Under the pieces are notes generated by a model that saw only the letters and a list, made by a program, of their open reading frames with translations, searched no databases and was not told where the DNA came from. From NCBI GenBank assembly GCA_025457865.1, contig JALOTP010000001.1, positions 96,457 to 160,456 of the forward strand: a DNA stretch of 64,000 nt. Direction: 5' to 3'. Each line of letters begins with the position of its first letter. Position 1 is the first letter of the stretch. Below are positions 3,532 through 25,688 of this stretch, piece by piece. A program made the position numbers and the translations under genes. The DNA comes from Thermoplasmatota archaeon (lineage in GTDB: Archaea > Thermoplasmatota > Penumbrarchaeia > Penumbrarchaeales > Penumbrarchaeaceae).

Positions 3532-4413
3532 TCAGAGGGATACCTTACCCTTTTTGAGCAGCATTTCCACCGCCTTGTCCGCTGCATCTTCCAGCTTCTC
3601 TCCGTTATCAAGGGCCTCGTTGACAGCCTTGTTCTGTTCGTCCATCAGAGCCCTTGCGTCCCTTTTGAGCCTGTCCCTCTCTCCCCTAAGCTGCACGACC
3701 TTCTCCCGAAGCTCCAGGGACTTCTTGTGATATGAATCCGCCTGCTGCCTCAGCTCCAGGTACTCCTGGTGCTTCTTGTCCGCCTCGTTCCTCAGATGGT
3801 CCAGGGACGGTGTGACGGAATCGATCTCCTTCTGGAGGTCATCCAGTTTCTCCATGAGCTCCCGGACCTTCTTGTGCTCCTCATCGGAGAGCCTTCTCAG
3901 CTCCTCTATCTCCTCTTCCTTCGAGAGGAGCTCCGTCCTGTGGGTCTGGAACACCTCGCCCTTGCCCCTGAGCTCGTTCATCCTCTTCCTCTTCTCCTCT
4001 ATCTGGGAGACGAGCTCCCTCTCCTTGCCCATGGAGAGGGGCATGGTCTGATAACGGTGTTCGAGCTCGTTTAAGTCCTTTTCCAGGACCACTATGTCCT
4101 CGTAAGGGTCCTTGACGGCACCCTCTTTCTTCCTTTTGAAGCCGAGAAGTGCCCTGGCGCGCTCAGTGTACAGGTCCCTCCTTGCGCGGGCGGCCTTCAT
4201 CTCCTCTATCAGTGCCGACCTCTTGTCCCTGGTTGCCCTTAACTGCTCCAGGATCGCTTTGCGCTTGTTTTGCAGGTCGTCCCTTAGCTCCCTGACGACC
4301 TTGGCCTGATCGTTAAGGCCATCCCTCCTCTCATAGATGGACCTGAGCCGTTTCTCCCCGTCAGAGAGTTCCCTGACCAGTTCTTGGGGCACCTCATCCG
4401 GGTCCATACGCAA
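3532..4413 (-). CDS. Conserved archaeal coiled-coil protein (COG1340-like)
   Basis: 293 aa, almost entirely heptad-like and charged (E/K/R/L-rich). No enzymatic motifs. Confidence 0.55.
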   Translation of the reverse strand: MRMDPDEVPQELVRELSDGEKRLRSIYERRDGLNDQAKVVRELRDDLQNKRKAILEQLRATRDKRSALIEEMKAARARRDLYTERARALLGFKRKKEGAVKDPYEDIVVLEKDLNELEHRYQTMPLSMGKERELVSQIEEKRKRMNELRGKGEVFQTHRTELLSKEEEIEELRRLSDEEHKKVRELMEKLDDLQKEIDSVTPSLDHLRNEADKKHQEYLELRQQADSYHKKSLELREKVVQLRGERDRLKRDARALMDEQNKAVNEALDNGEKLEDAADKAVEMLLKKGKVSL

Positions 4414-4465: not shown

Positions 4466-5242
4466 CTATGGTCGCGCCTTAGAATGGGAAGTGTTCGCTA
4501 TCTTGCCAGCCATTGCCCCGGCAACGAACCCGGCATCTATGTTGACGACTGCCAGTGGGGAGCAGCTCTGGAGCATGGCGAAGAGAGCGGTCTCACCCTT
4601 GCCGTGCAGGCCGTAGCCAGTGGAGACCGGCAGTCCTATCACCGGGACCTTGACCAGACCAGAGACCAGGGTTGGCAGGGCTCCTTCCCTTCCTGCCGAG
4701 ACTATGATGACGTCCGCCCCCCATTCCCTGAGCTGATGAAGGGGTCCCAGCAGCCTGTGGACACCTGCGACACCGACATCATGGAAGGCCATTGTGGCGC
4801 ACCCCATCTCCCTTGCCGTCAGCTCTGCTTCGAGGCTGACCGGTATGTCAGAGGTCCCAGCACTGAGCAGCCCTACCCTCCCACCTGTGGGGTGGAGGAT
4901 GGAACTGGCCGTCCTTGCGGTCAGGAAACCAGCCCTATCATCGTAGGTGTTCGTCAGGTCAGGGAAGCCCTCTTTGAGGGAACATAACAGCTCATCGCAT
5001 GCAGACCGCCCGAGCCTGGAGACTATCGCCCTTTGTGTCCTTCTCAGGAACTCCGAGGAGATCTCGAACAATTGTCCCTGCGTCTTTCCGTCGGCTATGA
5101 TGACCTCGGGTACCCCGGTCCTATATTCTCTGCCAGTGTCTATATTACATTCGAGCTCGCCGTAGAGCCTCCGTTCGAGCTCCTTAAGAGCATCATCGAC
5201 CGATGTCCTTTTCTCGGAGACCGCTCTCAGAAGGTCCTCCAT
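4466..5242 (-). CDS. larB: Nickel-pincer cofactor biosynthesis protein LarB (PurE-like AIR carboxylase family)
   Basis: GLLSAGTSDIPV, VGVAGVHRLLG, IIVSAGREGALP and VVNIDAGFVAGAMA match LarB/PurE-like motifs. The ORF extends to 5368, but the Met at 5242 (MEDLLRAV) gives the expected ~258 aa. Confidence 0.75.
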   Translation of the reverse strand: MEDLLRAVSEKRTSVDDALKELERRLYGELECNIDTGREYRTGVPEVIIADGKTQGQLFEISSEFLRRTQRAIVSRLGRSACDELLCSLKEGFPDLTNTYDDRAGFLTARTASSILHPTGGRVGLLSAGTSDIPVSLEAELTAREMGCATMAFHDVGVAGVHRLLGPLHQLREWGADVIIVSAGREGALPTLVSGLVKVPVIGLPVSTGYGLHGKGETALFAMLQSCSPLAVVNIDAGFVAGAMAGKIANTSHSKARP

Positions 5243-5310
5243 GACCGGTCCAAAGGTTCTGTCCTTATTATCATTACGGGTAGGGAAGGGCTTAATAGAG
5301 GCCTTACGGA

Positions 5311-7113
5311 TTGCCCAGCGGTCCAGCCTATGCTCTGGACCTGTCCAGGGATCGGCCCCGGGGTGCATGTTTGGTCAGGGAAACCGCTGTGGTCCAAGGC
5401 GACGGGAAGGCCCTCTCCGAAAGGGCCAGGGAAGCTGCCAGACAGCTTGGCCTCTCTTCCAGTGGTGCCGACCTCTTTTCTGTGGCCAGCATGTTCCCGA
5501 GGTTCGGAGGGTCCCATTTCCTGGTGATGAAAGGGCAGGACCCCCTCCATATTTGGGTGCCGGAAGGGGATGACTTCGTCTGGTCCCAACCGGCCCATGG
5601 ACCCCTGGGGAGGTTGGTATCGGACCAGCTGCGATGCCTGCAGGAAAGGCTCTCCATCGAAGGGATAGGGGGTCATAGATTGGTATATCAGCCGATGGGC
5701 CCCCTCCCCTCGTCAGTTGTTGATGTCCAGGAAGGTGCAGGGGTCATAGGTCTGGTCCTCGAAGAGGGGAACAGGGTCATCATAAGGAAAGAGAACGAAA
5801 ATAGCCGGACGGTCCTCGAATACCTCATCCGGCCCGAGACCGACCTGAGGCCGACGTTCATCCTGTCCCGATTGAGCTCAAAAGGGCTGAGGTCCGTCCC
5901 GGAGCTGCTCGGCACATCCTACTGGTCCCGTGGGGAGGAGCAAAGACCCTGGATGAGGATGGTCCGGTTCCCCCGCGGGACCGGTCCGGCCATGAGCCCC
6001 TTCCTCTCGGACCTCAGCGACCTGACATTGAGGTTCCTGGGCCTTGAGGGCGATAAGGCCAAACAGTACATGATGGGGCTTGCGAGCTCTGAGCAGTCTC
6101 CGTCCTTCAGTGCCGCCTTCAGACTGGGACTCTCCCTGGGCGAACTGCACGGGAAGGTCCTCTTCACACCGGAAGAAGCGTCGTCCGTCCGTGGGGACAG
6201 GAACCGTTCGGACCTGGCCGGTCTGTTCATGAACGGCAAGATGGGCATGGAACAGGTCGGGGCTTTGGTCGGGTGCTATTCCTCCTGTCAGGCTAGTGTT
6301 AGGAAGGGATTGACGAAGATACTCGGCGACCCCGAACCGGCCAGTCCATCCGGTCAGAGGAAGCTCAAGGTGGTCAGGAAGAAGGGAAGGGCTGTTCGAG
6401 GCGAAGGTCTGGAGCAGCTCTCGATGCTCAGATGGCATTTCCTCAGGGAGGCCGAGAGGCTAAGGTCACTGGTTATGGGGCTGAAGGCCCTCAGCGGGAC
6501 ACCGGCTGTGATGTCAGGTCTTGATGCTAGGTTGGATCGGATGGAGATGACAGGGGACGGGCAGTTCATCTTCAAGAGGTTCGATTTCGCTCTCCAGCGG
6601 GCCCAGGGGAGGACCGATGACAGGATGACAGGGCTCAAGGACCTCTCTTTGGTACTCAACTCCTTTATGAAGGTCCGCTACCTCTGCGCTTCCTCACTTC
6701 TGAGGAAGGCATCCCTTTCCCTGAGCGTACCTGCACAGGAGCTTGAGACGGTCTTCCTTGATTACAATATGGCAAAGAGAGGGCACCGTGCCATGCTCAC
6801 TGACCTACCGGTATGGCTGAGGATCGGTCATAAGGAAGCGGGCTTCAGGTACACGTTCGCCGCAGCCGTGGTCGGTTCCATCTGGTACGAAAAGGCCAGG
6901 AACCAGCTGGTCAGCGGTTACAACATGGGGGTCGGTCTTACAGGAAGGGATGAGCTCCTGGAATACCCGGAGAAGGTGGACACGGTCGAATGCATGCGGT
7001 CCATCCAGTGCCTTGCAGCGCTCTCATCCGCCTCTGATGCGCTCTCCCATCCCGAGGGCCCAAGGTCCTCCGTGGGGCTTTCCAATGACCTGTTCACCGC
7101 CCTACTGGTATGA
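5311..7113 (+). CDS. Hypothetical protein (600-aa ORF; possible phosphotransferase-like, unrecognised)
   Basis: Longest ORF in this region by far, whereas the antisense ORFs are 186 aa or shorter. I recognise no motif with confidence, and the true start may be an internal Met (e.g. MFPRFGG at ~5491). Confidence 0.4.
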   Translation: MPSGPAYALDLSRDRPRGACLVRETAVVQGDGKALSERAREAARQLGLSSSGADLFSVASMFPRFGGSHFLVMKGQDPLHIWVPEGDDFVWSQPAHGPLGRLVSDQLRCLQERLSIEGIGGHRLVYQPMGPLPSSVVDVQEGAGVIGLVLEEGNRVIIRKENENSRTVLEYLIRPETDLRPTFILSRLSSKGLRSVPELLGTSYWSRGEEQRPWMRMVRFPRGTGPAMSPFLSDLSDLTLRFLGLEGDKAKQYMMGLASSEQSPSFSAAFRLGLSLGELHGKVLFTPEEASSVRGDRNRSDLAGLFMNGKMGMEQVGALVGCYSSCQASVRKGLTKILGDPEPASPSGQRKLKVVRKKGRAVRGEGLEQLSMLRWHFLREAERLRSLVMGLKALSGTPAVMSGLDARLDRMEMTGDGQFIFKRFDFALQRAQGRTDDRMTGLKDLSLVLNSFMKVRYLCASSLLRKASLSLSVPAQELETVFLDYNMAKRGHRAMLTDLPVWLRIGHKEAGFRYTFAAAVVGSIWYEKARNQLVSGYNMGVGLTGRDELLEYPEKVDTVECMRSIQCLAALSSASDALSHPEGPRSSVGLSNDLFTALLV

Positions 7114-8952
7114 ACCAGAGTAATAGTACTCTCCGCTGGACTTCTGTTCGGTGTCAAGCCTGCTCCCGAGCTTGTTTATCCTCGGCCTCTTGGTGTCCAT
7201 GTCCCTTCTGAAGGTTATGCCCACGTCATTTAGGAAAAGGTTCATACCTTCCCGGAGGTCCAGCGGCCCGACGGCACGACCGTTCACCGAAGGGTCCCCG
7301 GAGAAGACCATCAGCGTGTCGGATACCAGGTCTATGAAATAGACATCATGGTCAACGATGAGGCCGGAGCGGGAGCTCTTCTCGATGACACGCCGAATCA
7401 CCTTTGCCGCCTCCATCCTCTGGTTGGCGTCAAGATAGGCCGAGGGCTCGTCGAGCATGTAGAGGTCCGCCTCCTGTGCAAGGCACATGGCTATGGCGAC
7501 CCTCTGCTGTTCACCGCCGGAGAGGCGCGACATCTCCTTGGGGTAGAGGTGCTTGAGATCGAGCGGCCCCTCTATCTCCGATGCGAAGAACCCTGCCGCG
7601 AACCGCTCCTTGAGGGAGATGATGAAGTACTCCTCCACGGTCCCATCGAAATCGTGCTTTATGTACTGGGGCTTGTACGAGATCTTGAAGTCCACCTTGA
7701 CGCTGCCCTTGTCCGGTGCGACCTCGCCTGCGAGCATCTTGACGAAGGTGGTCTTCCCTGTCGCATTGGGGCCCACGCAGCCCACGACCTCCCCCATGTG
7801 TATGACCCCTGCCTTGCTCTTGAAGTGGAAGCTGGGGAACCTCTTCTCTAGGGATGGGAAGATCAGGAGGTCGCCGCCCGACCATGAGGTTCGGGGCGGG
7901 TGGTCCAAGAACTCAACGGGCTTGTCCCTGAACCTCACGTTCTCCTCCCTCATGAAACCGTCCAGGAAGGTGTTTATGGCATGCTTGACGGTCTTTGGCT
8001 TGATCACGACACCATAGGACCCCGCCTCGCCGTACATCAGGCAGGCGTTATCGGCAAGGAAATCGAGTATGGCCAGGTCATGCTCCACGACAAGGACCTG
8101 TCTTCTCTCTCCCAGCTCCTTGATGACCTGGGAAGCGCGGAGCCTCTGTTTTATGTCCAGGTACGAGGAGGGTTCGTCGAAGAAATAGAGGTCCGCATCC
8201 TTCAGTATGGTCGCGGCAAGGGCGACCCTCTGCAGCTCGCCGCCAGAGAGCTTGTCAAGGGTCCTATCCAACACCCGCTCTATCTCGAACTTCGCGGCCA
8301 CCTCGGCAACGCCGTCGGGCCTCACCTTCGTGAGCATCTCCCTCACGGTGCCGCTGAAAGCCTTGGGAATCGAGTCCACGTACTGGGGTTTCAGCGCGCA
8401 GCGTATCTGGCCCTCAGATATCCTCTTGAAATGTTCGTAGAGCCCCGTCCCTGCGAAACGCTTCATCACATCCTGCCAGTTCTGCGGGGGGATGTCCATA
8501 TCTTCCTTCTCTAACCTTCTTGAACCGAAGGGCCTCGCCGCGTTCTTCTCATCCGGGTCTGGGTCCATGCCGAGGCCGAAATTGGGGAGGAGGCCTCCCG
8601 ATAGTATGTTGAGTATGGTGGACTTCCCTATGCCGTTCGACCCCAGCAGACCAAGGACCCTGCCCTCCTGAGGGTAAGGGATGCGGAAGAGCCTGAAGCC
8701 GTTGGGACCGAACTGGTGGATGAGGTCATATTCGAGCTCGGAGGGGAGGTTCGTTATTCGGATCGCATCGAAGGGGCATTTGTGGACGCATATGCCGCAC
8801 CCCACGCAGAGCTCCTCGTCTATGACGGGCTTGTTCTTGGGGTCCCAGGAGAATATCTCGTCCCCGGCCCTGACGCGGGGGCAGAAGTTGTAGCACTCCT
8901 TGGAGCACTTCTTGGGCTGGCATCTGTCGTATATGAGGGATGCGATGCGCAT
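7102..8952 (-). CDS. abce1: ABCE1 / RNase L inhibitor-type ribosome-recycling ATPase
   Basis: N-terminal 4Fe-4S ferredoxin cysteines (CQPKKCSKECYNFCP, CVGCGICVHKCP) followed by two ABC ATPase domains (GSNGIGKST, LSGGELQRVA; GPNATGKTT, LSGGEQQRVA). 616 aa. Confidence 0.95.
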   Translation of the reverse strand: MRIASLIYDRCQPKKCSKECYNFCPRVRAGDEIFSWDPKNKPVIDEELCVGCGICVHKCPFDAIRITNLPSELEYDLIHQFGPNGFRLFRIPYPQEGRVLGLLGSNGIGKSTILNILSGGLLPNFGLGMDPDPDEKNAARPFGSRRLEKEDMDIPPQNWQDVMKRFAGTGLYEHFKRISEGQIRCALKPQYVDSIPKAFSGTVREMLTKVRPDGVAEVAAKFEIERVLDRTLDKLSGGELQRVALAATILKDADLYFFDEPSSYLDIKQRLRASQVIKELGERRQVLVVEHDLAILDFLADNACLMYGEAGSYGVVIKPKTVKHAINTFLDGFMREENVRFRDKPVEFLDHPPRTSWSGGDLLIFPSLEKRFPSFHFKSKAGVIHMGEVVGCVGPNATGKTTFVKMLAGEVAPDKGSVKVDFKISYKPQYIKHDFDGTVEEYFIISLKERFAAGFFASEIEGPLDLKHLYPKEMSRLSGGEQQRVAIAMCLAQEADLYMLDEPSAYLDANQRMEAAKVIRRVIEKSSRSGLIVDHDVYFIDLVSDTLMVFSGDPSVNGRAVGPLDLREGMNLFLNDVGITFRRDMDTKRPRINKLGSRLDTEQKSSGEYYYSGSYQ

Positions 8953-9070
8953 CGTTATCCCGGGTCCATGGACGTATGGTAGATAAATGTTGGTCAGGGG
9001 GCGGGGAAGGAGCGGAGATCACGATAAGGTGCCATCGTCGATGGGAGGTCCGGATGGGTCATTGGTAAGG

Positions 9071-9099
9071 ATTATATATGTTTGAACATATGTTTAAAC
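9071..9099 (+). promoter_or_regulatory. TATA-like box (ATTATATAT) plus imperfect palindrome GTTTGAACATATGTTTAAAC directly upstream of the antitoxin start
   Basis: The AT-rich box at 9071-9079 lies about 25 nt before the ATG at 9104/9110, implying a near-leaderless transcript. The 20-bp inverted repeat at 9080-9099 sits between the box and the start codon, as expected for an autoregulatory operator. Confidence 0.45.
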
Positions 9100-9103
9100 T
9101 GAG

Positions 9104-10288
9104 ATGGAGATGGCAACTAAGACGATAACCGTGACCCAGGATGCATATGACGCGATGGCCCGGCAGAAGAGGGAGGGTGAGAGCTTCTCCGAGCTCTTCC
9201 TGAGATTGACCGGACGGGAATGCAACATCTCGGATTTCCTTGGACTATGGGAGATGGACGATGAGGACCAGAAGGTCTTTGATCAGATCAGGAGGTCCTG
9301 GTTGAATAATACCATTTATTATAACAATCGTCCACTTAATTACGGGACCTTAAATTCATTGTTATGGGATACAGATGGTGATAATATGTCCGACGGTTGG
9401 GAGATAAAATACGGATTCGATCCGTGCGATAACTCGAGCCCTAACAAGAATAATGATGGGGACCAGGACGGGATCAGTGATTACAATGAATATTGTCTTG
9501 AAGATACACCTGGAGCTTTCGTTGAGAACAATGTGACCATAAAGTACCATAACATGTCAAAATGGGGAGCGCAGCCAGACAGAAAAGATATCTTTGTAGA
9601 AGTTGATTGGATGGTCCGTGAATGGTTCGATGATTATTCATTTACTAAAAAAGAATTGAAATTAAACCAAGAAATGAAGGATAAATTGATATTATTATTT
9701 TTCAAACAAATAGAAAAGAACTATTCTTTCACTCTACATATTGATGATGGTTATATGGGTGGAGGTACTCAACTTGATTATCAACCAAGAATATATATAA
9801 ATAAAAAGAATGGAGGTTTTAATGATTTGCAGGATTTTTATTTAAATAATTTTTATTATATATTGAGACAGGGCGTTTTTCATTATTGTGTTATTGGAAA
9901 TGAAGTTTTTTCAAATGGGGAAAGCGAAGATACCGATTGGGTGCCTGGAGTTTCAACAAAAGGACATTTTATTATTGGAGGTGAGTTTCATACTCAAGAA
10001 AAAATGGCTAATGTATTTTTACATGAATTGGGACATACTTTTGGATTACTAAGAGAGGGGGGCAGCAATTTTACAGGGATTGACAATACTGATACTACAA
10101 GACCATGGAAATGTGAGTTTTGGAAATATTTAGAGTATAAAAGTGTTATGAATTATAATTTTATATACGACTTTTTGTTTAATTATTCTGATGGGTCAAA
10201 TGGAAATGATGATTTTGACGATTGGGACTGGATTAATAATAATCTATCATTTTCTCTTTATTTAAAAGGCCTGGGGGTGTGGGATTGA
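9104..10288 (+). CDS. Chimeric ORF: VapB-family (PF02697-like) antitoxin N-terminus (aa 1-~65, GC-rich) read through into an AT-rich metzincin-like zinc metallopeptidase (copy A)
   Basis: aa 1-66, MEMATKTITVTQDAYDAMARQKREGESFSELFLRL...FLGLWEMDDEDQKVFDQIRRSW, resembles archaeal putative antitoxins. GC content collapses at nt ~9300 inside the ORF. Downstream come a TSP3-like DTDGDNMSDGWE motif, then KWGAQPDRKDIFVEVDWMV, HELGHTFGLL (10022-10036) and an SVMNY Met-turn. The protease part may use its own internal start (e.g. the ATG at 9386). Confidence 0.6.
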   Translation: MEMATKTITVTQDAYDAMARQKREGESFSELFLRLTGRECNISDFLGLWEMDDEDQKVFDQIRRSWLNNTIYYNNRPLNYGTLNSLLWDTDGDNMSDGWEIKYGFDPCDNSSPNKNNDGDQDGISDYNEYCLEDTPGAFVENNVTIKYHNMSKWGAQPDRKDIFVEVDWMVREWFDDYSFTKKELKLNQEMKDKLILLFFKQIEKNYSFTLHIDDGYMGGGTQLDYQPRIYINKKNGGFNDLQDFYLNNFYYILRQGVFHYCVIGNEVFSNGESEDTDWVPGVSTKGHFIIGGEFHTQEKMANVFLHELGHTFGLLREGGSNFTGIDNTDTTRPWKCEFWKYLEYKSVMNYNFIYDFLFNYSDGSNGNDDFDDWDWINNNLSFSLYLKGLGVWD

Positions 10289-10860
10289 AATATCAAAAAA
10301 TTATTTCTTTAATAATAGTATTATTTTTATCTAGTGGGTGTTTTGATTTTTTTTCTGAGGAAGATTCCTATTTCAGGTTTAAATTTGAATTTAAAATTAA
10401 TGTATATTCTAATAATGACACGTATATGATTTATATACCTATACCAAAAAATGGTTCAAATAAGGGTGTTAATCCAATAATTAAGTATTTTATAAAAGAA
10501 GGAGATATTGAAACGAATATTTCGTTGGTAAAAATAAATGATCGTTTTGAATATGCACTTCAGATAGTTGGGAATGGAAATGCTCGTATTTGGTTAGATA
10601 ACAAAATGATATACAGTTTAGAATATTATTTAGGATACATGTGGTTATACTCAGATGCTAAACATTTATTTTTCTATTTTAATTCTTCGATGGAAGGTTG
10701 TGCGATTGATTATTATTTACAACAAGAAATATTTCACGATGATGGAGCCACTCACAAAATTTTTTATCGAACAGATTCAGATCATTCAGATACTGTTTTA
10801 GTTAATGGATGGAATAATGTAATTGTTTATCAATACGAATCACCAGTAGTAATGAGGTAA
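10279..10860 (+). CDS. Predicted lipoprotein (copy A partner)
   Basis: Signal peptide with lipobox (IISLIIVLFLSSGC). AT-rich and Y/N/K-rich. The start overlaps the stop of the upstream protease ORF by a few nt (GTG/TTG start). Confidence 0.55.
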   Translation: MGLKYQKIISLIIVLFLSSGCFDFFSEEDSYFRFKFEFKINVYSNNDTYMIYIPIPKNGSNKGVNPIIKYFIKEGDIETNISLVKINDRFEYALQIVGNGNARIWLDNKMIYSLEYYLGYMWLYSDAKHLFFYFNSSMEGCAIDYYLQQEIFHDDGATHKIFYRTDSDHSDTVLVNGWNNVIVYQYESPVVMR

Positions 10861-10864
10861 AATT

Positions 10865-11677
10865 ATGATTAAGACATGTTACAAAAATAATATTATGTGC
10901 CGAGTTCATGACATGTGCAGGTGGGGAGCACAGCCTGATAGGCAGGATATTTTCGTCGAGGTTGACTGGATGGTAGAGGAAAAGTTCCAATACAATTGGG
11001 AGATTGACAGATATGAAACTGAAATATCATATAAAATGTCAGATAAAGTAAAAGAGAAGGTAATAATAGCTTTTTATAAAGCATGCAAATACGGGAATCA
11101 TATCACATTGCACATAGATGACGGATGCATGGGTGGGGGAGGAGATAAAATTGATTATATCTATGAAATTTATGACACATGGAAAAACGATGATGGTGAC
11201 ATGTATGATTTTAAAGGTCATGATGCAAATAATAATTTCAAATTGGATAATAGTGAAGAGGTAACTAATCCATTAACAGGAAAACCATATTTTAGTAGTT
11301 CAAGATCAAAGATATTTCACTATTGTTTGATGGCTTATTATCTTAAAGGCTCTCATAAAACCCTTGGTTCATCAGATGGACCAAATGTTAAAGCCGGGTA
11401 TGATGTAGGGGATCTAGGAGGAGATGATATAACAATCTTTATGGGGGCTCTTGGAAGTGCAAACGATGCTGAAGTGGCTGATGTTTTTATGCATGAGTTA
11501 GGACATAATTTAGGATTGATTGATTATTATTCAAATCCTGATAAAGCAAAGACTATGTATGGTTGGGGACATAATAAATATTTGAATTATAATAATAATT
11601 TAAACGATGGATATGCGGGATGGCAAGAAATGGACTTAACTATATTTACTGATTCGACAAAAGACTTATGGGATTGA
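10865..11677 (+). CDS. Metzincin-like zinc metallopeptidase (copy B; lacks the TSP3-like N-region)
   Basis: Paralogous to copy A (RWGAQPDRQDIFVEVDWMV; TLHIDDGCMGGGG). HELGHNLGLID (11492-11524) fits HExxHxxGxxD, and TMYGW is a Met-turn-like motif. No signal peptide is visible. Confidence 0.6.
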   Translation: MIKTCYKNNIMCRVHDMCRWGAQPDRQDIFVEVDWMVEEKFQYNWEIDRYETEISYKMSDKVKEKVIIAFYKACKYGNHITLHIDDGCMGGGGDKIDYIYEIYDTWKNDDGDMYDFKGHDANNNFKLDNSEEVTNPLTGKPYFSSSRSKIFHYCLMAYYLKGSHKTLGSSDGPNVKAGYDVGDLGGDDITIFMGALGSANDAEVADVFMHELGHNLGLIDYYSNPDKAKTMYGWGHNKYLNYNNNLNDGYAGWQEMDLTIFTDSTKDLWD

Positions 11678-11689
11678 TGGAGGAATACT

Positions 11690-12190
11690 ATGAAAAATAT
11701 TATAATCTATATATTATCAATAACTTTCATATTAATTATTGGATGCCTTGACAATAATGAACCCAGTCAAGAAATGTATAATGGAAATATTGATTTATCT
11801 ATTCATATTTCAAATAATGATCTTAACCAAATTTTAGTAAATATCTTATTAGAAAATATTGATTCTCACAAAATAACGATTCAACCATTATACTTATGGG
11901 GAAATCTTCAAATTAATATTTCAGATGCAAATGGATTGAAGGTTTTTAGTGCGGATAAACCTAAGTTATTTTCTTTGACAAATGATGATTTGATAACGAT
12001 AAAAGAGAATCAAAATATCACGTTGACAATTAATTTATATGAGCATTTCAATTTTAATCGTAATTTCACACAACCATATTCAATATATGCACAATATAAA
12101 ACTTCAGATATTGGTGGAGGAAATGAAAAGCTTAATTCATGGAAAGGTGAACTAATTTCGAATATAATCGAATTCAAGATAACTTCATAA
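11690..12190 (+). CDS. Predicted lipoprotein (copy B partner)
   Basis: MKNIIIYILSITFILIIGC gives a signal peptide plus lipobox. A GGAGGAATACTATG RBS-like sequence precedes the start. 166 aa, N/I-rich. Confidence 0.55.
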   Translation: MKNIIIYILSITFILIIGCLDNNEPSQEMYNGNIDLSIHISNNDLNQILVNILLENIDSHKITIQPLYLWGNLQINISDANGLKVFSADKPKLFSLTNDDLITIKENQNITLTINLYEHFNFNRNFTQPYSIYAQYKTSDIGGGNEKLNSWKGELISNIIEFKITS

Positions 12191-12346
12191 AGTCGGAGTC
12201 ACAGATTACAGCCAAATTAATTGGCAATATACTGGACACGTCTTAGGCATAATTTGTGATGTTTAAAAATCAAGTAGCATAATTGATGTGCAAGAAATAT
12301 CATCAATCAGGAACGATGAATTGTTCCAGGTACGAGTGAATCTCAT

Positions 12347-12628
12347 CTACATCAACAGGAAGCTTAGAACAATCAACAATGATGATCTCATATCCTGGCA
12401 TCCTATACTGCTCGATCTTCCGGTTCCGGTACTTCTTGGAAACATGGAACTCAATTTCATACAAGGTCCTTGTTGTCTTGTCGCAAAGATCGACATATCC
12501 GTTTGGGACCTCCATTCGGATGATACATCATGTTTCATATCTCTTAGAATCCAGAACAGGATCGCTTTGGCAACGAAATGTTTGTAGGTTTCGTTCGATA
12601 ACTTCGTAAGATGGTTCGGCCCACTCAC
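12347..12628 (-). CDS. Hypothetical small protein (93 aa)
   Basis: GTG start preceded by a strong AGGAGG 7 nt upstream, in intermediate-GC sequence between the island and the AcnX gene. Overlapping ORFs (12303..12515 minus, 12288..12587 plus) cannot be excluded. No homology recognised. Confidence 0.3.
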   Translation of the reverse strand: MSGPNHLTKLSNETYKHFVAKAILFWILRDMKHDVSSEWRSQTDMSIFATRQQGPCMKLSSMFPRSTGTGRSSSIGCQDMRSSLLIVLSFLLM

Positions 12629-12731
12629 TGATTTGTTCCTCCTGAGGTCCTATCTTCGGAGGATTACGAGAAAGATATGACAGAGAGAAGAGACAACCAT
12701 ATCAAGAATTCTACCAACGATGACCCCGTCC

Positions 12732-13952
12732 TCATCCCATGCTCCTCTCCACCATCAGTTCCATCGGGAGCAGCTCCGTTTCGACCTTCGACATCTTGGG
12801 GATGTAATGCGCCGCCTTGCCGGAATCGGTACCTACGAGCCCTATGCCCATATCCCTCAAGGGCGTCACCACCATGCAGGTGTCGTCATATATCTCGACC
12901 CCCGCACCCACTATATCGTTCAGGACCCCGGACCCAAGCATGGACCTTACCGCCTTCGACGTGAAAACAATGATGCGCTTGCCCTCTTTGAGCTTCCGTC
13001 CCTTGATGGCGCCATGGAGCCTCCCGAACTCAGCAGGACCGAACTGAGGACAGCCCAGGACGTAGATGTCGGGCTCCTTTTGTGGGGCAGGGTAGAGGTC
13101 CTCCTGTGCTGCCTCGAGCTCCGAAGGTCCTATGACGAGCCTCTCACGGACGATGCCTTCCTTCCGTGACCTCTCCATCATCCTGTGCTCGGGGGTCACC
13201 CCTTCCATATGGAACATCGCATGCCCGCCCTTGGCGGCAAGGGATGCGCCCAGATGCTTGAGGTCTATGATGTCCGGTCTGCCTTTGATGCCAGAGAGAT
13301 GGGCGATCACGGAGTTCCAGTTCTTCCCTATGTAAGCCCCTAGCAGGTCGAAATGGAGATGTGAGAGATTGCCCCTTACCTCGACCTCGAAGGTGGGAAG
13401 CCTACCCCCGTCGAGGTGCAGTCCGTATTCCGGGGTCAGGCCCGTTATGGCCGAGGCAAGTGATGATATCCCGCCCTCCCGGTTGGTCCTTGCCCCCACG
13501 ACCGAGTTGGCATAGATCACGGCATTGGACTCGCCCCATGCCACATGCTCCCCCAGGCGGATAGGGTGGACCGTTCCCGATAATTCGTAGGGGATGCATG
13601 AGCAGGTGGTATCTATCCCCATCTGCGAGAATAGCTCGATTATCCTTGACTGCTTGGAGGCAAAGAAAGGGCCTATGCCCATCCTCTCCCAGCATGCAAG
13701 GTCCATCCCGGCAGGGTTCAGGGATGACGGGACCTTGGCCTTGGCCCCTTTCCGTGTGAACTCCTCAAGGAGCTTCAGCAGGGCCCCCCCGGCCGTGAGA
13801 TAGCTGACGCCGGAGACATGGGCGGACCCTATTGGAAGCATCCGCCCGGCCCCTTCGAGGTCGCCCAGATTGACCAGGACCTTCATGGCAAGGGCTGCGG
13901 CCTCGCCCTCCTCACCTTCAAGGGCCAGCTCCTCCTCCCTGGTCAGCTCCAT
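12732..13952 (-). CDS. Aconitase X-family (DUF521) large subunit, e.g. phosphomevalonate dehydratase large subunit of the archaeal alternative mevalonate pathway
   Basis: 406 aa with the AcnX catalytic-domain character (CxxC cluster TTCSCIPYEL, GESNAVIYANSVVGARTN, Gly-rich segments). Size and motifs fit DUF521. Confidence 0.65.
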   Translation of the reverse strand: MELTREEELALEGEEGEAAALAMKVLVNLGDLEGAGRMLPIGSAHVSGVSYLTAGGALLKLLEEFTRKGAKAKVPSSLNPAGMDLACWERMGIGPFFASKQSRIIELFSQMGIDTTCSCIPYELSGTVHPIRLGEHVAWGESNAVIYANSVVGARTNREGGISSLASAITGLTPEYGLHLDGGRLPTFEVEVRGNLSHLHFDLLGAYIGKNWNSVIAHLSGIKGRPDIIDLKHLGASLAAKGGHAMFHMEGVTPEHRMMERSRKEGIVRERLVIGPSELEAAQEDLYPAPQKEPDIYVLGCPQFGPAEFGRLHGAIKGRKLKEGKRIIVFTSKAVRSMLGSGVLNDIVGAGVEIYDDTCMVVTPLRDMGIGLVGTDSGKAAHYIPKMSKVETELLPMELMVERSMG

Positions 13953-22887: not shown

Positions 22888-23463
22888 TCACATGGTCCCC
22901 TTCCTTTTTCTGTCGAGCAGTCCCTTCAATCTAAGGAAGGTCTCCCTGTCCAATTCCCCCTTCATGAACCTCTCAGCAAGCTCGATGAGCATCTCATCGA
23001 TGAGGTCCTCGTTCGAGACGTACTCATAGACCGTTCCAGAACCCTTCTCCACTTCCATGACCGCCCTGTGCTCCTTGAGTGAGCGGACGATCCGGTACAA
23101 TCGGGACTTAGATATGTCTGTCCGCTGGAGGAGCTGGTCCGGAGTTAAGCCAGGTTCGCTCCTTATCATTTCGAGGACCTTTCTCTGCTCGGGTAGGATC
23201 CCTTCCCAACCTACGGTTCTGGACGGGTCATGGGACGATGAGTAATAGGTCCTCATCCTACCGGTCTTCCTGGAGAAGACCTCACGCTTTTTCTCAAGGA
23301 ATCGCAGATGGTATTCCAGTGTACCCTTGTTCAGACCCAGGGACCTCTGTAGTGAGCTGAAGGAGATGCCTGGGAGCGAACGGATCCTCTCAAGCAGCAC
23401 TTGCCTGGTCCTGTGGATGTCCGCTTCCTCGGTAACGGCCATGGGATCGACCAGCCCCATCAC
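22888..23463 (-). CDS. Winged-helix transcriptional regulator (two wHTH-like halves)
   Basis: The SFSSLQRSLGLNKGTLEYHLRFLEKK and LTPDQLLQRTDISKSRLYRIVRSLKE helices give an ArsR/MarR-like fold. Confidence 0.55.
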   Translation of the reverse strand: MMGLVDPMAVTEEADIHRTRQVLLERIRSLPGISFSSLQRSLGLNKGTLEYHLRFLEKKREVFSRKTGRMRTYYSSSHDPSRTVGWEGILPEQRKVLEMIRSEPGLTPDQLLQRTDISKSRLYRIVRSLKEHRAVMEVEKGSGTVYEYVSNEDLIDEMLIELAERFMKGELDRETFLRLKGLLDRKRKGTM

Positions 23464-25688
23464 TCCTCATGGAGGATAGATCTGAGAGCTGAATAGATTT
23501 CCCCATCATAAGTGTCTCTCCTTGCTTTCAAGGCCTTCTTCAGTTCGGTCCTCCTTGAATCCCTTGGCAGTTTCACACCTTCGAAGGGGGCTGTCTCGAT
23601 CTCGGAATAAACTATCCTTTCTCTCAAAGTATCGAACTGGACGTCCATCGGTCCGTTCCGGGGCAATCCGTCAGGCGACAGGCGTTCGGACCATACCTGG
23701 GTAACCGATCCCCCTTCGAAGGTATGCGGGGTCATGCGGGGGGTAGGAACATCGATAAGGTCATCCACATGAGATGGCGCCTCTTCTTTCCTCTTCCTTT
23801 CCCTCTTATAAATGAAAAGGGAGATGATGCATAGGAACAATACGAGACCTGATGCGATCAGAACGAAGGGAAGGGAGCTCTTTTCATCGACACGATCCTT
23901 CCCGGCCACATCCAATACCACTATGATCTCGCATGTTCCATTGTAACTGTCGATCGCGCGCAGTCTGAGCGTATAGGTCCCTTTGTCCAGGGTAAGGTTC
24001 AGAAACTCTCCCTCCCCCACCAATCCGATACCGTCTATGTACCATTCGTACCTTACAGAGTCGCCATAGGTTAGGTCCAGGTCAAGCGATGAGGCCGAAA
24101 GGGTGAACGTTTCACCGCCCTTCACTTCCTTTTCGGGGGTCGATATCGATGCGTTGGTTGGCGGTCTGTTCGTTTCCGCGGTCCAAGAAAAGTCATCTGT
24201 CTTGTTATCTTCGGAAGGATCATCGGTGGTATTCCCATCATCGGTAGTACCATTATCTGGCGGTGTACTGTTGTCTATCGGTGTTGGAATGTAGTTCATG
24301 GTCACGTTCCAGACAGTTTCAAATCCGCTCTCATATACATGAGTGACAACAAAATAGCTCAGTCCGCTCCTATTGGAGTAATTGAAAATGAGGAGATCAG
24401 TATCTATAAGGAATGTCTCCTCATGACGGTCAAGCTTCCCTACCGTATAGTCAGAGGCAACCTTGTGGCTAGAAATACCAGCGGAATGGATCTTTTCATC
24501 GACGCCCTCATCATACGAGGAATAATAGAAAAGACATTCTCGGTATTCCTCGAGGAAATCGAACTCTAGAAGCCCAACAACGGGCACTTCCCGTATAGGT
24601 ATTGTGACGTTTGGATCGACCTTTGCAATGAATGGATAGCTACCACTTTCGTAGTCAATATCGCTGATGTTGATCCTATTGTCCTCACTTTCAGCATCGA
24701 ACCTACCGTTCCCCTGGACTATGTTCTTATAAAGGTTTGGGAAATGGCCGTTAAGGCTAAAGATGCCGCTACCAAGGTTGTTCCTTATAGAATTGTAGAA
24801 CAGGTTGCTGTTTGCCGTGGTAACGACTCCATTCTTTTTATTTCCCTCTATGAAATTATTGAAGATGAGGTCACCAGAGCTATCGACGACATAGCACAAT
24901 CCAAAGCCAAAATTATCGCAAAGCTGATTGCCAGCGATGAGGCTTTGTCTAGTATTGTTGAGGTAGAGCCCTCCGTTCGAGTTGTTATGACAGCTGTTGT
25001 TCCTGATTATTAGGTTGAACCCATGATGGATACGGATACCATATCCATAGGAGTCCACTTCATTTCCTACCAACCGGGTGCAATTGTTGCCCATACCCTC
25101 CAGGAAGATACCGGAACTACCCTGTAATCCATGTCCACGGATCTTATTGAACATGATATCGTTCCAATGGTTATCTTTGGCCAACCTTATCCCGCACAAT
25201 CGGTTACCGTTCATCTCATTATTTTGTATCAGGTTATTGTCCGACCGGTTGAGGAAAACATGACAATTGCTACTGTTCTCAAACAAATTCTCCCGAATGA
25301 CCACATTCTCGGCATTAAAGAGCGATGCTCCGAACGCTGCATAATTGAACCTACAGTTCTGGACAGTGATATATTTCGTGGTATTGGCGATGAAAATCCC
25401 GAAAAGGGGATTATGGTAAGGGCCCCCTCCATCGAAAAAGAATCCTTCTATGATGTAAGGATCGCTCTCTGTCCCGGTCCCCGAGACAACACCGTTGCCG
25501 GCCGTGAAGTCGGAATCGCCCTCTATGAGTATCGGCTCATGCAGCTCGTACTGTCCCCTTGTTCCATCGATGATCGGGCCGGTCGTTCCATCGGACGTAT
25601 CGACCGACAAGAGCACCGGCAGGACCAGAAGCAGGCACAGCAGGGTCGTTGCTTTTCCACAGGACATGGGTTTACGCTCCTTTTCCAT
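23460..25688 (-). CDS. Cell-surface right-handed parallel beta-helix (NosD/pectate-lyase-like) repeat protein with PKD-like domain, TM anchor and cytoplasmic tail
   Basis: Signal peptide, repeated N-x-x-x-N/G beta-helix rungs (NNSCHNNSNGGLYLNNT...) and a T/D/N-rich linker. A TM helix (LPFVLIASGLVLFLCIISLFIY) lies about 100 aa from the C-terminus. The gene is ~42% GC against ~60% around it. Confidence 0.65.
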   Translation of the reverse strand: MEKERKPMSCGKATTLLCLLLVLPVLLSVDTSDGTTGPIIDGTRGQYELHEPILIEGDSDFTAGNGVVSGTGTESDPYIIEGFFFDGGGPYHNPLFGIFIANTTKYITVQNCRFNYAAFGASLFNAENVVIRENLFENSSNCHVFLNRSDNNLIQNNEMNGNRLCGIRLAKDNHWNDIMFNKIRGHGLQGSSGIFLEGMGNNCTRLVGNEVDSYGYGIRIHHGFNLIIRNNSCHNNSNGGLYLNNTRQSLIAGNQLCDNFGFGLCYVVDSSGDLIFNNFIEGNKKNGVVTTANSNLFYNSIRNNLGSGIFSLNGHFPNLYKNIVQGNGRFDAESEDNRINISDIDYESGSYPFIAKVDPNVTIPIREVPVVGLLEFDFLEEYRECLFYYSSYDEGVDEKIHSAGISSHKVASDYTVGKLDRHEETFLIDTDLLIFNYSNRSGLSYFVVTHVYESGFETVWNVTMNYIPTPIDNSTPPDNGTTDDGNTTDDPSEDNKTDDFSWTAETNRPPTNASISTPEKEVKGGETFTLSASSLDLDLTYGDSVRYEWYIDGIGLVGEGEFLNLTLDKGTYTLRLRAIDSYNGTCEIIVVLDVAGKDRVDEKSSLPFVLIASGLVLFLCIISLFIYKRERKRKEEAPSHVDDLIDVPTPRMTPHTFEGGSVTQVWSERLSPDGLPRNGPMDVQFDTLRERIVYSEIETAPFEGVKLPRDSRRTELKKALKARRDTYDGEIYSALRSILHEE

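Follow-up and report, generated by a model that had tools for sequence, protein, structure and literature searches.

Introduction

Orphan toxin/immunity modules have been described in polymorphic toxin systems, as in cdiA-CT/cdiI and rhs-CT/rhsI (PMC3482391, PMC4927057), and classical systems of this kind are reported to be rare in archaea (PMC3482391). In the VARTIG modules of the Thermococcales, a large secreted protein has a hypervariable C-terminal region and is accompanied by variable downstream genes (PMC8416519). In Tannerella forsythia, potempins are paired with KLIKK-peptidases, and the potempin genes lie upstream of the peptidase genes (PMC9890683). In this article, we describe a locus of an uncultured Thermoplasmatota archaeon in which an AT-rich array of peptidase and lipoprotein genes (the island) is joined in frame to the head of a vapB antitoxin gene, and we compare it with these systems and with the VapBC toxin-antitoxin pairs (a PF02697 VapB and a PIN-domain VapC). 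The whole stretch of DNA that was analysed, called the window below, is 64 kb long (64,000 nucleotides (nt); contig JALOTP010000001.1, positions 96,457 to 160,456) and forms part of the 138 kb Joint Genome Institute (JGI) metagenome contig Ga0392394_0000025, sample 3300037461. The fused open reading frame (ORF) occurs identically as MUC62_00485 on a 178 kb contig of an NCBI metagenome-assembled genome (MAG).

Our favoured account, to which we give a probability of roughly 0.72, is that a cassette array overwrote the tail of vapB and the whole of vapC, that the resulting fusion is accidental, and that the array belongs to a wider recombining family. In the literature, we found no earlier description of this cassette family or of giant TSP3/peptidase proteins in the Thermoplasmatota.

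The vapB Head and Its Earlier State

The fused ORF (9104-10288) encodes 394 amino acids (aa), of which residues 6-57 match PF02697 VAPB_antitox (E 3.7e-10, 40.9 bits for the whole ORF). When the head was searched alone, the match rose to 45.6 bits (E 1.2e-11); both scores exceed the curated gathering cutoff of 27.9 bits. It covers profile positions 1-56 of 69, and positions 57-69 are missing. The closest intact VapB in a search of the protein collection (P0001) is 82 aa long and 76% aa identical to the head. It is encoded at locus L083, a short contig of a sister lineage from another metagenome, with the gene order dodecin (-), vapB (+, 82 aa), vapC with a PIN domain (+, 128 aa), and AcnX (-). 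Nucleotide identity between the two loci is 82.6% on the left (window 9067-9301, L083 408-642), where the match begins 31 nt before the start codon and extends as far as the Trp codon of residue 66, and 83.9% on the right (window 12745-13391, L083 1095-1741). The left match ends at 9301, exactly where the guanine plus cytosine (GC) content falls.

After the Trp that both proteins have in common, the L083 VapB goes on with EDGDRMLKRRLRGL, whereas the window's head lacks the last ~14-15 codons and is thus not a complete short VapB (~70-90 aa) with a C-terminal tail. No remnant of this tail was found anywhere in the 64 kb, no PIN-domain toxin gene adjoins the head as in a type II VapBC operon, and a tblastn search of the window with the L083 PIN protein gave nothing (best E 0.11). 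Because neither a 3' remnant of vapB nor vapC follows the island, the event is best read as a replacement of ~450 bp by ~3.4 kb and not as a gene-splitting insertion. The locus therefore resembles VapBC in its 66-residue head, in its promoter and palindrome, and in the intact pair at L083, and differs from it in having lost the VapB tail and the whole of vapC, which leaves the window with no toxin-antitoxin system that could function.

The gap between the ABCE1 and AcnX genes, in which these changes lie, varies among relatives. In the nearest genomes, two Thermoplasmatales MAGs (L003 and L004, ABCE1 96% and 92% aa identical to the window's), the gap measures only ~390 bp and holds a dodecin gene, with neither vapBC nor the island. 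Nucleotide homology to both ends at 8959, 7 nt from the ABCE1 start codon, and picks up again at 12729 in L003 (at the AcnX stop codon) and at 12745 in L004, as in L083. A more distant relative (L005, ABCE1 76% identical) has ~5 kb of unrelated accessory genes in its gap (4933-9795), namely those for an ATPase, a membrane protein, a flavodoxin-like protein, and an AlbA_2/HATPase_c_4 protein. Among all fetched loci, including 80 ABCE1 loci, only L083 holds a relative of the window's VapB. Since L003 and L004 have dodecin alone and L005 has other cargo, the gap is a variable hotspot, and vapBC itself is flexible cargo and no fixed host gene. A simple empty site was also considered as the pre-event state and rejected, because the closest genomes have no vapB; it is L083 that gives the true pre-event state.

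The 107 bp spacer at the left of the gap occupies the site of the dodecin gene of L003, L004, and L083. It matches none of the fetched loci, and tblastn of the whole window found no copy of dodecin. With dodecin gone, the sequence upstream of ABCE1 (8953-9066) is, from -8 onward, this unmatched spacer, and ABCE1 and the vapB promoter are now divergent across a common intergenic region of 151 bp. In another Thermoplasmatota lineage (L087-L089, 4001-7309), a full-length 478 aa member of the peptidase family described below lies convergent to ABCE1, 6 nt from its 3' end; this neighbourhood is probably a coincidence.

The Fusion Joint

Both parents of the fusion carry a Trp codon in frame at the joint. 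The intact VapB of L083 reads ...IRRSW/EDG... (the slash marks the joint), the giant protein P0134, which is introduced below, reads ...TEKFW/LNNTILFNNRPL..., and the window's ORF reads ...IRRSW/LNNTIYYNNRPL.... Only ~3-5 nt are common to both parents at this point. One of the three frames is open across the joint, and the prior chance of an in-frame fusion is one in three. Because the Trp codon is in frame in both parents, selection is not needed to account for the open frame, and the in-frame VapB-peptidase chimera is probably an accidental by-product.

Upstream of the head, a TATA-like ATTATATAT lies at 9071-9079, 25-33 nt before the ATG, and is followed by an 18-nt palindrome, TTTGAACATATGTTTAAA, at 9081-9098. 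The palindrome has one mismatch in the window, and its L083 counterpart, TTTAAACATATGTTTAAA, is perfect. From this conservation, we infer that the block functions as promoter and operator, and transcription from it into the cassettes is plausible.

The Composition of the Island

The composition was scanned in 500-nt windows across the 64 kb. At 9301/9302, inside the fused ORF, GC drops from ~56% to ~30%. Windows within 9302-12300 have a mean GC of 0.300 and a maximum of 0.338, compared with a mean of 0.557 (standard deviation (sd) 0.041, minimum 0.436) outside the segment, that is, a z of ~-6. By tetranucleotide L1 distance, the island lies 0.886 from the remaining window, whereas host segments of its length give 0.285 +/- 0.040 (a difference of ~15 sd). 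The island genes have a GC of 0.19-0.29 at third codon positions, compared with 0.73-0.80 for the genes that flank them, and their amino-acid composition is shifted too; they have thus had a long evolutionary past against an AT-rich background. The stretch 12300-12730 is intermediate (GC 0.43), and the flanking host DNA has ~56-60% GC. Nowhere else in the 64 kb does a 500-nt window fall below 0.43, and the only others below 0.45 are at 24251-25250 (0.436-0.444). This second region lies in the gene (23460-25688, -) of a secreted surface protein, a beta-helix (NosD/Beta_helix) protein of 742 aa that has a membrane anchor at its C-terminus.

An earlier note on this DNA, made from the sequence alone, had proposed much of the above. 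The GC drop near 9300 within the ORF is borne out by the GC profile and the tetranucleotide distance, the resemblance of the first ~65 residues to PF02697 by the profile search of the head alone, the loss of the cognate toxin by the L083 pair, and the promoter- and operator-like elements by their almost unchanged state in L083 (9071-9098). Its view that the island splits the antitoxin gene has to be given up: the vapB tail and all of vapC were replaced, and no 3' remnant lies beyond the island. The empty site joining ~9295 to ~12305 for which it proposed to look was found in none of the relatives examined, L003 and L004 having dodecin and no vapBC. The features of the locus are listed in Table 1.

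Table 1. Coordinates of the features in the ABCE1-AcnX region of the window.
Feature	Position	Strand	Basis
ABCE1/RLI gene, conserved left hotspot flank	7102..8952	-	Pfam Fer4_RLI and ABC_tran
107 bp spacer with no match in relatives	8960..9066	.	blastn breakpoints, alignment
vapB promoter/operator (predicted)	9067..9103	+	near-identical block in L083
vapB head, 66 codons of PF02697 antitoxin	9104..9301	+	PF02697 match, L083 identity
Fusion joint, TGG (Trp) codon	9299..9301	+	alignment of both parents
Orphan module 1, 5'-truncated peptidase (ORF1)	9302..10288	+	TSP3-like linker and metzincin domain (HELGH, SVMNY)
Small lipoprotein 1 (ORF2), lipobox LSSGC	10279..10860	+	
Orphan module 2 (ORF3), catalytic domain only, HELGH	10865..11677	+	paralogue of module 1
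Small lipoprotein 2 (ORF4), lipobox IIGC, GC 0.25	11690..12190	+	sequences, all-against-all blastp
Frameshifted 108 aa PD-(D/E)XK-like gene with ~48 nt of upstream flank	12303..12676	-	reconstructed protein matches family
AcnX gene, conserved right hotspot flank	12732..13952	-	PF04412, E 5e-127

The Genes of the Island

The island contains two peptidase-lipoprotein modules. ORF3 is 32% aa identical to ORF1, and the two have an 81-nt repeat at 73% identity; ORF3 also shows weak M66/Reprolysin HExxH matches. The two lipoproteins, ORF2 and ORF4, are unrelated in sequence. The start codon of ORF2 is likely the TTG at 10285, and ORF2 is a candidate cognate binder of the ORF1 peptidase. The foreign part of ORF1 begins at the equivalent of residue 186 of the protein P0016 and residue 4003 of P0134, and its peptidase part has neither a signal peptide nor the ~190 aa N-domain.

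No Pfam, NCBIfam, or PADLOC family of integrases or transposases was found in the island, and no defence-system model matched it. A tRNA gene, flanking direct repeats, target-site duplications, and terminal inverted repeats are absent as well, so the island does not have the integrase, tRNA target, and flanking repeats of a classical integrative mobile element or genomic island.

As to the earlier note, its four co-directional genes are as it described them, since ORF2 (from 10279) overlaps the end of ORF1 (10288), ORF3 starts at 10865 after the end of ORF2 at 10860, and ORF4 starts at 11690 after the end of ORF3 at 11677. The statement that there is no integrase or transposase holds by annotation, yet a conserved putative nuclease, treated below, accompanies the cassettes. 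It was right in calling the protein downstream of the joint zinc-metallopeptidase-like, and the motifs and the modelled fold make this a metzincin-type enzyme. The intermediate GC up to ~12700 is also real and belongs to a separate minus-strand gene. Of the island limits that it gave (9300-12303), the left one stands at 9301/9302, whereas the right one has to be moved to ~12731 by the inclusion of this fifth gene; in other words, the island fills the entire replaced interval, from 9302 to ~12731. The foreign operon of the note is not an intact one: the interval contains two C-terminal modules, both 5'-truncated, and the cassette family to which they belong is also found where giant surface-protein genes of the same MAG end.

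The Peptidase Family

The family to which the AT-rich part of ORF1 belongs comprises 388 detected proteins, mostly 478-545 aa long, and its named members are almost all from the Thermoplasmatota. Full-length members have a signal or transmembrane segment, the ~190 aa N-domain, a Ca-binding TSP3-like linker, and an HExxH domain with an SxMNY turn. In 56 sequences, H242, E243, and H246 are invariant and M284, N285, and Y286 nearly invariant. At the third zinc ligand site (HExxHxxGxx[H/D]), our reading of the sequences gives Arg in ORF1 (HELGHTFGLLR), Asp in ORF3, and His in some relatives. All Pfam and NCBIfam peptidase matches stay below the curated cutoffs. An AlphaFold model of the peptidase (mean predicted local distance difference test score 77) has the catalytic fold of the metzincins, the structure matches being Archaemetzincin and 3lmc (9.7), Atrolysin (9.6), ADAM8 and ADAM17 (~9.4), Ulilysin (8.9), CpaA (8.1), and Mirolysin (7.6). 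A lipobox gene follows the peptidase in 8/8 modules of the AT-rich subfamily; universal pairing of peptidase and lipoprotein was considered and rejected, because two of three distant members have no partner. No relatives of the peptidase family or of the 108 aa gene were found on viral contigs, and a viral origin is thus not indicated for either.

Giant Secreted Proteins With Peptidase Ends

The nearest relative of the island is on the JGI contig Ga0392394_0001851 (L084), from the same metagenome and assembly as the window, where positions 1-311 are 86.5% identical to window 9303-9613. In the NCBI MAG, this locus is the C-terminus of P0134 (MUC62_04280, with the same MAG prefix as MUC62_00485), a secreted protein of 4351 aa whose N-terminus is hydrophobic and which contains many repeats of the DxDxDG type. 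AT-rich DNA (0.17-0.38 GC) stands beside host-like DNA (0.55-0.62 GC) in L084, and a second giant gene there (1625 aa) ends in the same peptidase module; downstream of it come a lipobox gene and a piece of a giant-protein gene, in this order. The 1625 aa gene carries TSP3_bac matches, as does the giant gene of L094, a locus of the related MAG M17C-73-04 (ABCE1 70% identical). Along the L094 series, a TSP3-rich body (GC 0.44-0.47) is followed by the N-domain and peptidase (0.32), the lipoprotein (0.27), a GC-rich 82 aa remnant that resembles the middle of P0134, and then host DNA. The giant-protein gene of this MAG (L094 476-3262) is stopped between ...HYESYGSNHII and VVQDLPRNHY..., a stretch that is continuous in P0016; the stop reflects either a pseudogene or a sequencing error.

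Sequence divergence within the family rises toward the catalytic end. ORF1 and P0134 are ~90% aa identical over the first 104 residues (the linker) and 10-50% identical thereafter. When P0134 is compared with the L094 giant protein, identity falls from 55-75% in the body and 40-68% in the N-domain to 15-30% in the catalytic end, and the lipoproteins encoded downstream of the two are unrelated. In P0015, segments like those of ORF1 and of ORF3 are combined in a hybrid protein. A 37-nt block of ORF3 that encodes HIDDGCMGGG (11107-11143) recurs with 100% identity twice in L092, a locus from a third metagenome (9579-9615 and 11817-11853), and 34 nt of it are identical in L084 (6202-6235), while the proteins are otherwise ~30% identical. 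Two orphan fragments of L092 begin exactly at the LHIDDGCMGGG block. On these grounds, recombination may take place at the HIDDGCMGGG-coding block.

The 108 aa Gene and the L092 Units

The 108 aa protein reconstructed from the intermediate-GC tail has 71 matches, mostly 108 aa long and 60-90% identical. The window's copy is broken by a 1-nt deletion near 12515, located by means of the consensus ...SSEWKVPNGY.... In this family, D47, D50, and E60 are invariant and E58 nearly so. PDDEXK_9 is matched by 17/34 members (best E 0.006) and CoiA_nuc by 7/34 (best 0.0017), all below cutoff, and the best PDB match is 3r3p, a 'mobile intron protein' (E 0.17). We also considered whether the tail could be a remnant of vapC, and this was rejected, the tail being a minus-strand copy of this unrelated conserved family.

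In L092, the 108 aa gene occurs three times within 6 kb, and two of the copies are convergent to a truncated peptidase fragment and a lipobox protein, in the order and orientation that ORF3, ORF4, and the 108 aa gene have in the window. Because this three-gene order recurs, the 108 aa tail belongs to the island, with its gene as the third member of the cassette unit. A weak relationship (E ~3e-4) links the L092 lipoproteins to ORF2.

Several further observations concern L092 itself. Gene kinds seen in the L005 gap also accompany the 108 aa gene here. A 34-nt motif, TTCGAAGGTGCTTGAAGAGACCAGGGAAATTATT, occurs four times (3690-3723, 5260-5293, 7110-7143, and 10206-10239), at apparent cassette boundaries within a block of ~40% GC that stands beside DNA of 59% GC, and has the look of an attachment (att) site. 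As an integration site for the cassettes it was rejected, since it is present neither in the window nor in any other fetched locus. Between copies of the 108 aa gene (7151-7779, -), two small genes (92 aa and 117 aa) overlap; they have no Pfam matches, and their arrangement is like that of a toxin-antitoxin pair.

Comparison With Known Systems

The closest likeness is to the polymorphic toxins. Giant secreted multidomain repeat proteins are encoded by the genes of P0134, L084, and L094, their divergence is concentrated at the C-terminal enzymatic domain, and directly downstream lies a small gene whose sequence is unrelated from one module to the next. Displaced fragments and an anomalous composition that suggests lateral transfer are seen in both. 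Standalone C-terminal cassettes are represented by the AT-rich part of ORF1, by ORF3, and by the two L092 fragments, and as in the polymorphic toxins, 5'-truncated tandem modules still carry a conserved segment with homology to the full-length gene. On the other hand, all C-terminal domains here have one fold, the metzincin fold, and not those of many toxin families; the C-terminal divergence gradient is present, but the fold stays constant and is not swapped for another toxin family. The window's orphans stand apart from the main gene, in an unrelated locus instead of downstream of it, and the candidate immunity proteins are exported lipoproteins.

The VARTIG modules are likewise archaeal, with recombination-driven C-terminal hypervariability and an organisation like that of polymorphic toxin systems. 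They differ in their Ig domains, in place of which the proteins described here have TSP3 repeats and a metzincin, and in the phylum in which they occur, and neither an orphan peptidase nor a 108 aa gene has been described for them. In contrast to the potempins, the partner gene here is downstream of the peptidase gene. For a chaperone role of the partner, the Acinetobacter CpaA chaperone-substrate complex (PDB 6o38) is a precedent. No sequence or fold similarity of the partner to the potempins or the CpaA chaperone was detected.

Weighing the Explanations

The events may have run as follows. An AT-rich cassette array, 9302 to ~12731, would have overwritten the last ~14-15 codons of vapB and the entire vapC in the hotspot. 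It comprises two orphan peptidase modules, each with its private lipoprotein, and ends with the convergent 108 aa gene and its 1-nt deletion. Full modules are found at the C-termini of giant secreted proteins with Ca-binding repeats, in the same MAG and in the related MAG, and the cassettes may spread by recombination at conserved nucleotide blocks. A crossover on the shared Trp codon would have kept the frame and placed VapB(1-66)-peptidase behind an intact TATA box and palindromic operator, and loss of the VapB tail was presumably tolerated with the toxin lost in the same event. At the cell surface, the lipoproteins may bind or neutralise their cognate peptidases as immunity proteins, inhibitors, or chaperones. 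Since the chimera has no export signal, it cannot act as a secreted enzyme, and an exported partner could not reach it.

Several points weigh against this account. The paralogue in the same MAG is ~86% identical over 311 nt only, a match that does not pin down the direct donor. The Arg of ORF1 stands at the usual third-ligand site of the metzincins, distant members of the family are single genes in ordinary core contexts, two of three with no partner gene, and the assignment of the 108 aa protein as a nuclease is below threshold. For the lipoproteins, a toxin/immunity or inhibitor role is putative, and the model of ORF2 matched no known immunity or inhibitor fold. No second, independent sample with the junction was found; a metagenome-wide junction scan returned only a distant locus (L086), the scanned set evidently not containing the source sample. 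Furthermore, all evidence, that for both junctions included, comes from metagenome assemblies, and the L084 contig ends within 2 nt of the site homologous to the joint (window 9303).

These last points would fit an assembly chimera, in which AT-rich DNA of another organism or locus was misjoined between the vapB head and AcnX; the single metagenome source of the junction, the extreme composition contrast, and the second contig of the same assembly that ends at the homologous boundary all speak for it. A chimera would require two misjoins 3.4 kb apart, however, both returning to perfectly syntenic host DNA, and the ~3-5 nt common to the parents at the junction are far under any assembler k-mer. 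The identical 394 aa fusion is present in both the 138 kb JGI contig and the 178 kb NCBI MAG contig, neither the vapB tail nor vapC is present anywhere in the window, and AT-rich cassettes adjoin GC-rich host DNA in L084, L094, and L092 as well. The NCBI assembly reads through the position of the L084 end as the 4351 aa protein, and no long k-mers are common to both copies there; the contig end may mark a branch of the assembly graph, to which alternative cassettes or a further near-identical copy gave rise. An assembly error is therefore unlikely, and we rate it as very improbable.

The fusion might instead be a selected new gene, for example one that combines a DNA-binding regulator with a cytoplasmic protease, like the pairings of antitoxins with ImmA-type peptidases. 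Its open frame, intact HExxH and Met-turn, and conserved promoter and operator would agree with this, as would the profile positions that the head retains (1-56 of 69), which we take, from antitoxins in general, to include the DNA-binding region. Yet the fusion forms a single protein cluster with a single member, and the one-in-three chance of an open frame is explained by the shared Trp codon. The peptidase part is a truncated extracellular type with Ca-binding TSP3 repeats and with no signal peptide or N-domain, its unameliorated composition implies a recent event, and the adjoining 108 aa gene is already frameshifted. Selection for the chimera thus seems quite improbable. The same replacement could also have carried cargo with no part in conflict, namely nutritional or surface-remodelling proteases with membrane-anchored inhibitors or chaperones, the orphans being decaying debris. 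A protease with an inhibitor or chaperone would be an equally concrete role, and in every reading the lipoprotein would bind its cognate peptidase. Both orphan peptidases retain open frames and catalytic motifs, however, and hypervariable partners, a steep C-terminal divergence, displaced remnants, and orphans that recur in several genomes are more typical of conflict or self-recognition cassettes (PMC3482391, PMC4927057, PMC8416519). We regard this peaceful role of the cargo as possible, short of probable.

Implications

The event itself, if the favoured account is right, is ordinary genome plasticity, yet it offers a base-resolved example of which the ancestral state is kept in a sister lineage. 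Its wider value lies in the recurring unit of AT-rich peptidase C-terminus, lipoprotein, and 108 aa gene on giant surface proteins in GC-rich archaeal genomes, a unit with features characteristic of recombining cassettes for conflict or self-recognition.

A larger interpretation is offered tentatively, as a rather unlikely one: the family may represent an undescribed polymorphic-toxin-like system of the Thermoplasmatota, composed of giant Ca-binding surface proteins with diversifying metzincin ends, private lipoproteins that protect the producer, and three-gene units, with a small PD-(D/E)XK nuclease as the third member, which would move and be reshuffled through recombination at nucleotide blocks of perfect conservation. 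If so, orphan arrays such as the one in the window would be immunity stores or a reserve of alternative C-termini, and the contig end at the W/LNN boundary would reflect cassette switching at the population level. Because the Thermoplasmatota in question are uncultured, a testable protease-binder pair would be valuable; with such a defined pair, one could study by experiment how they deal with their neighbours or protect their own surface.

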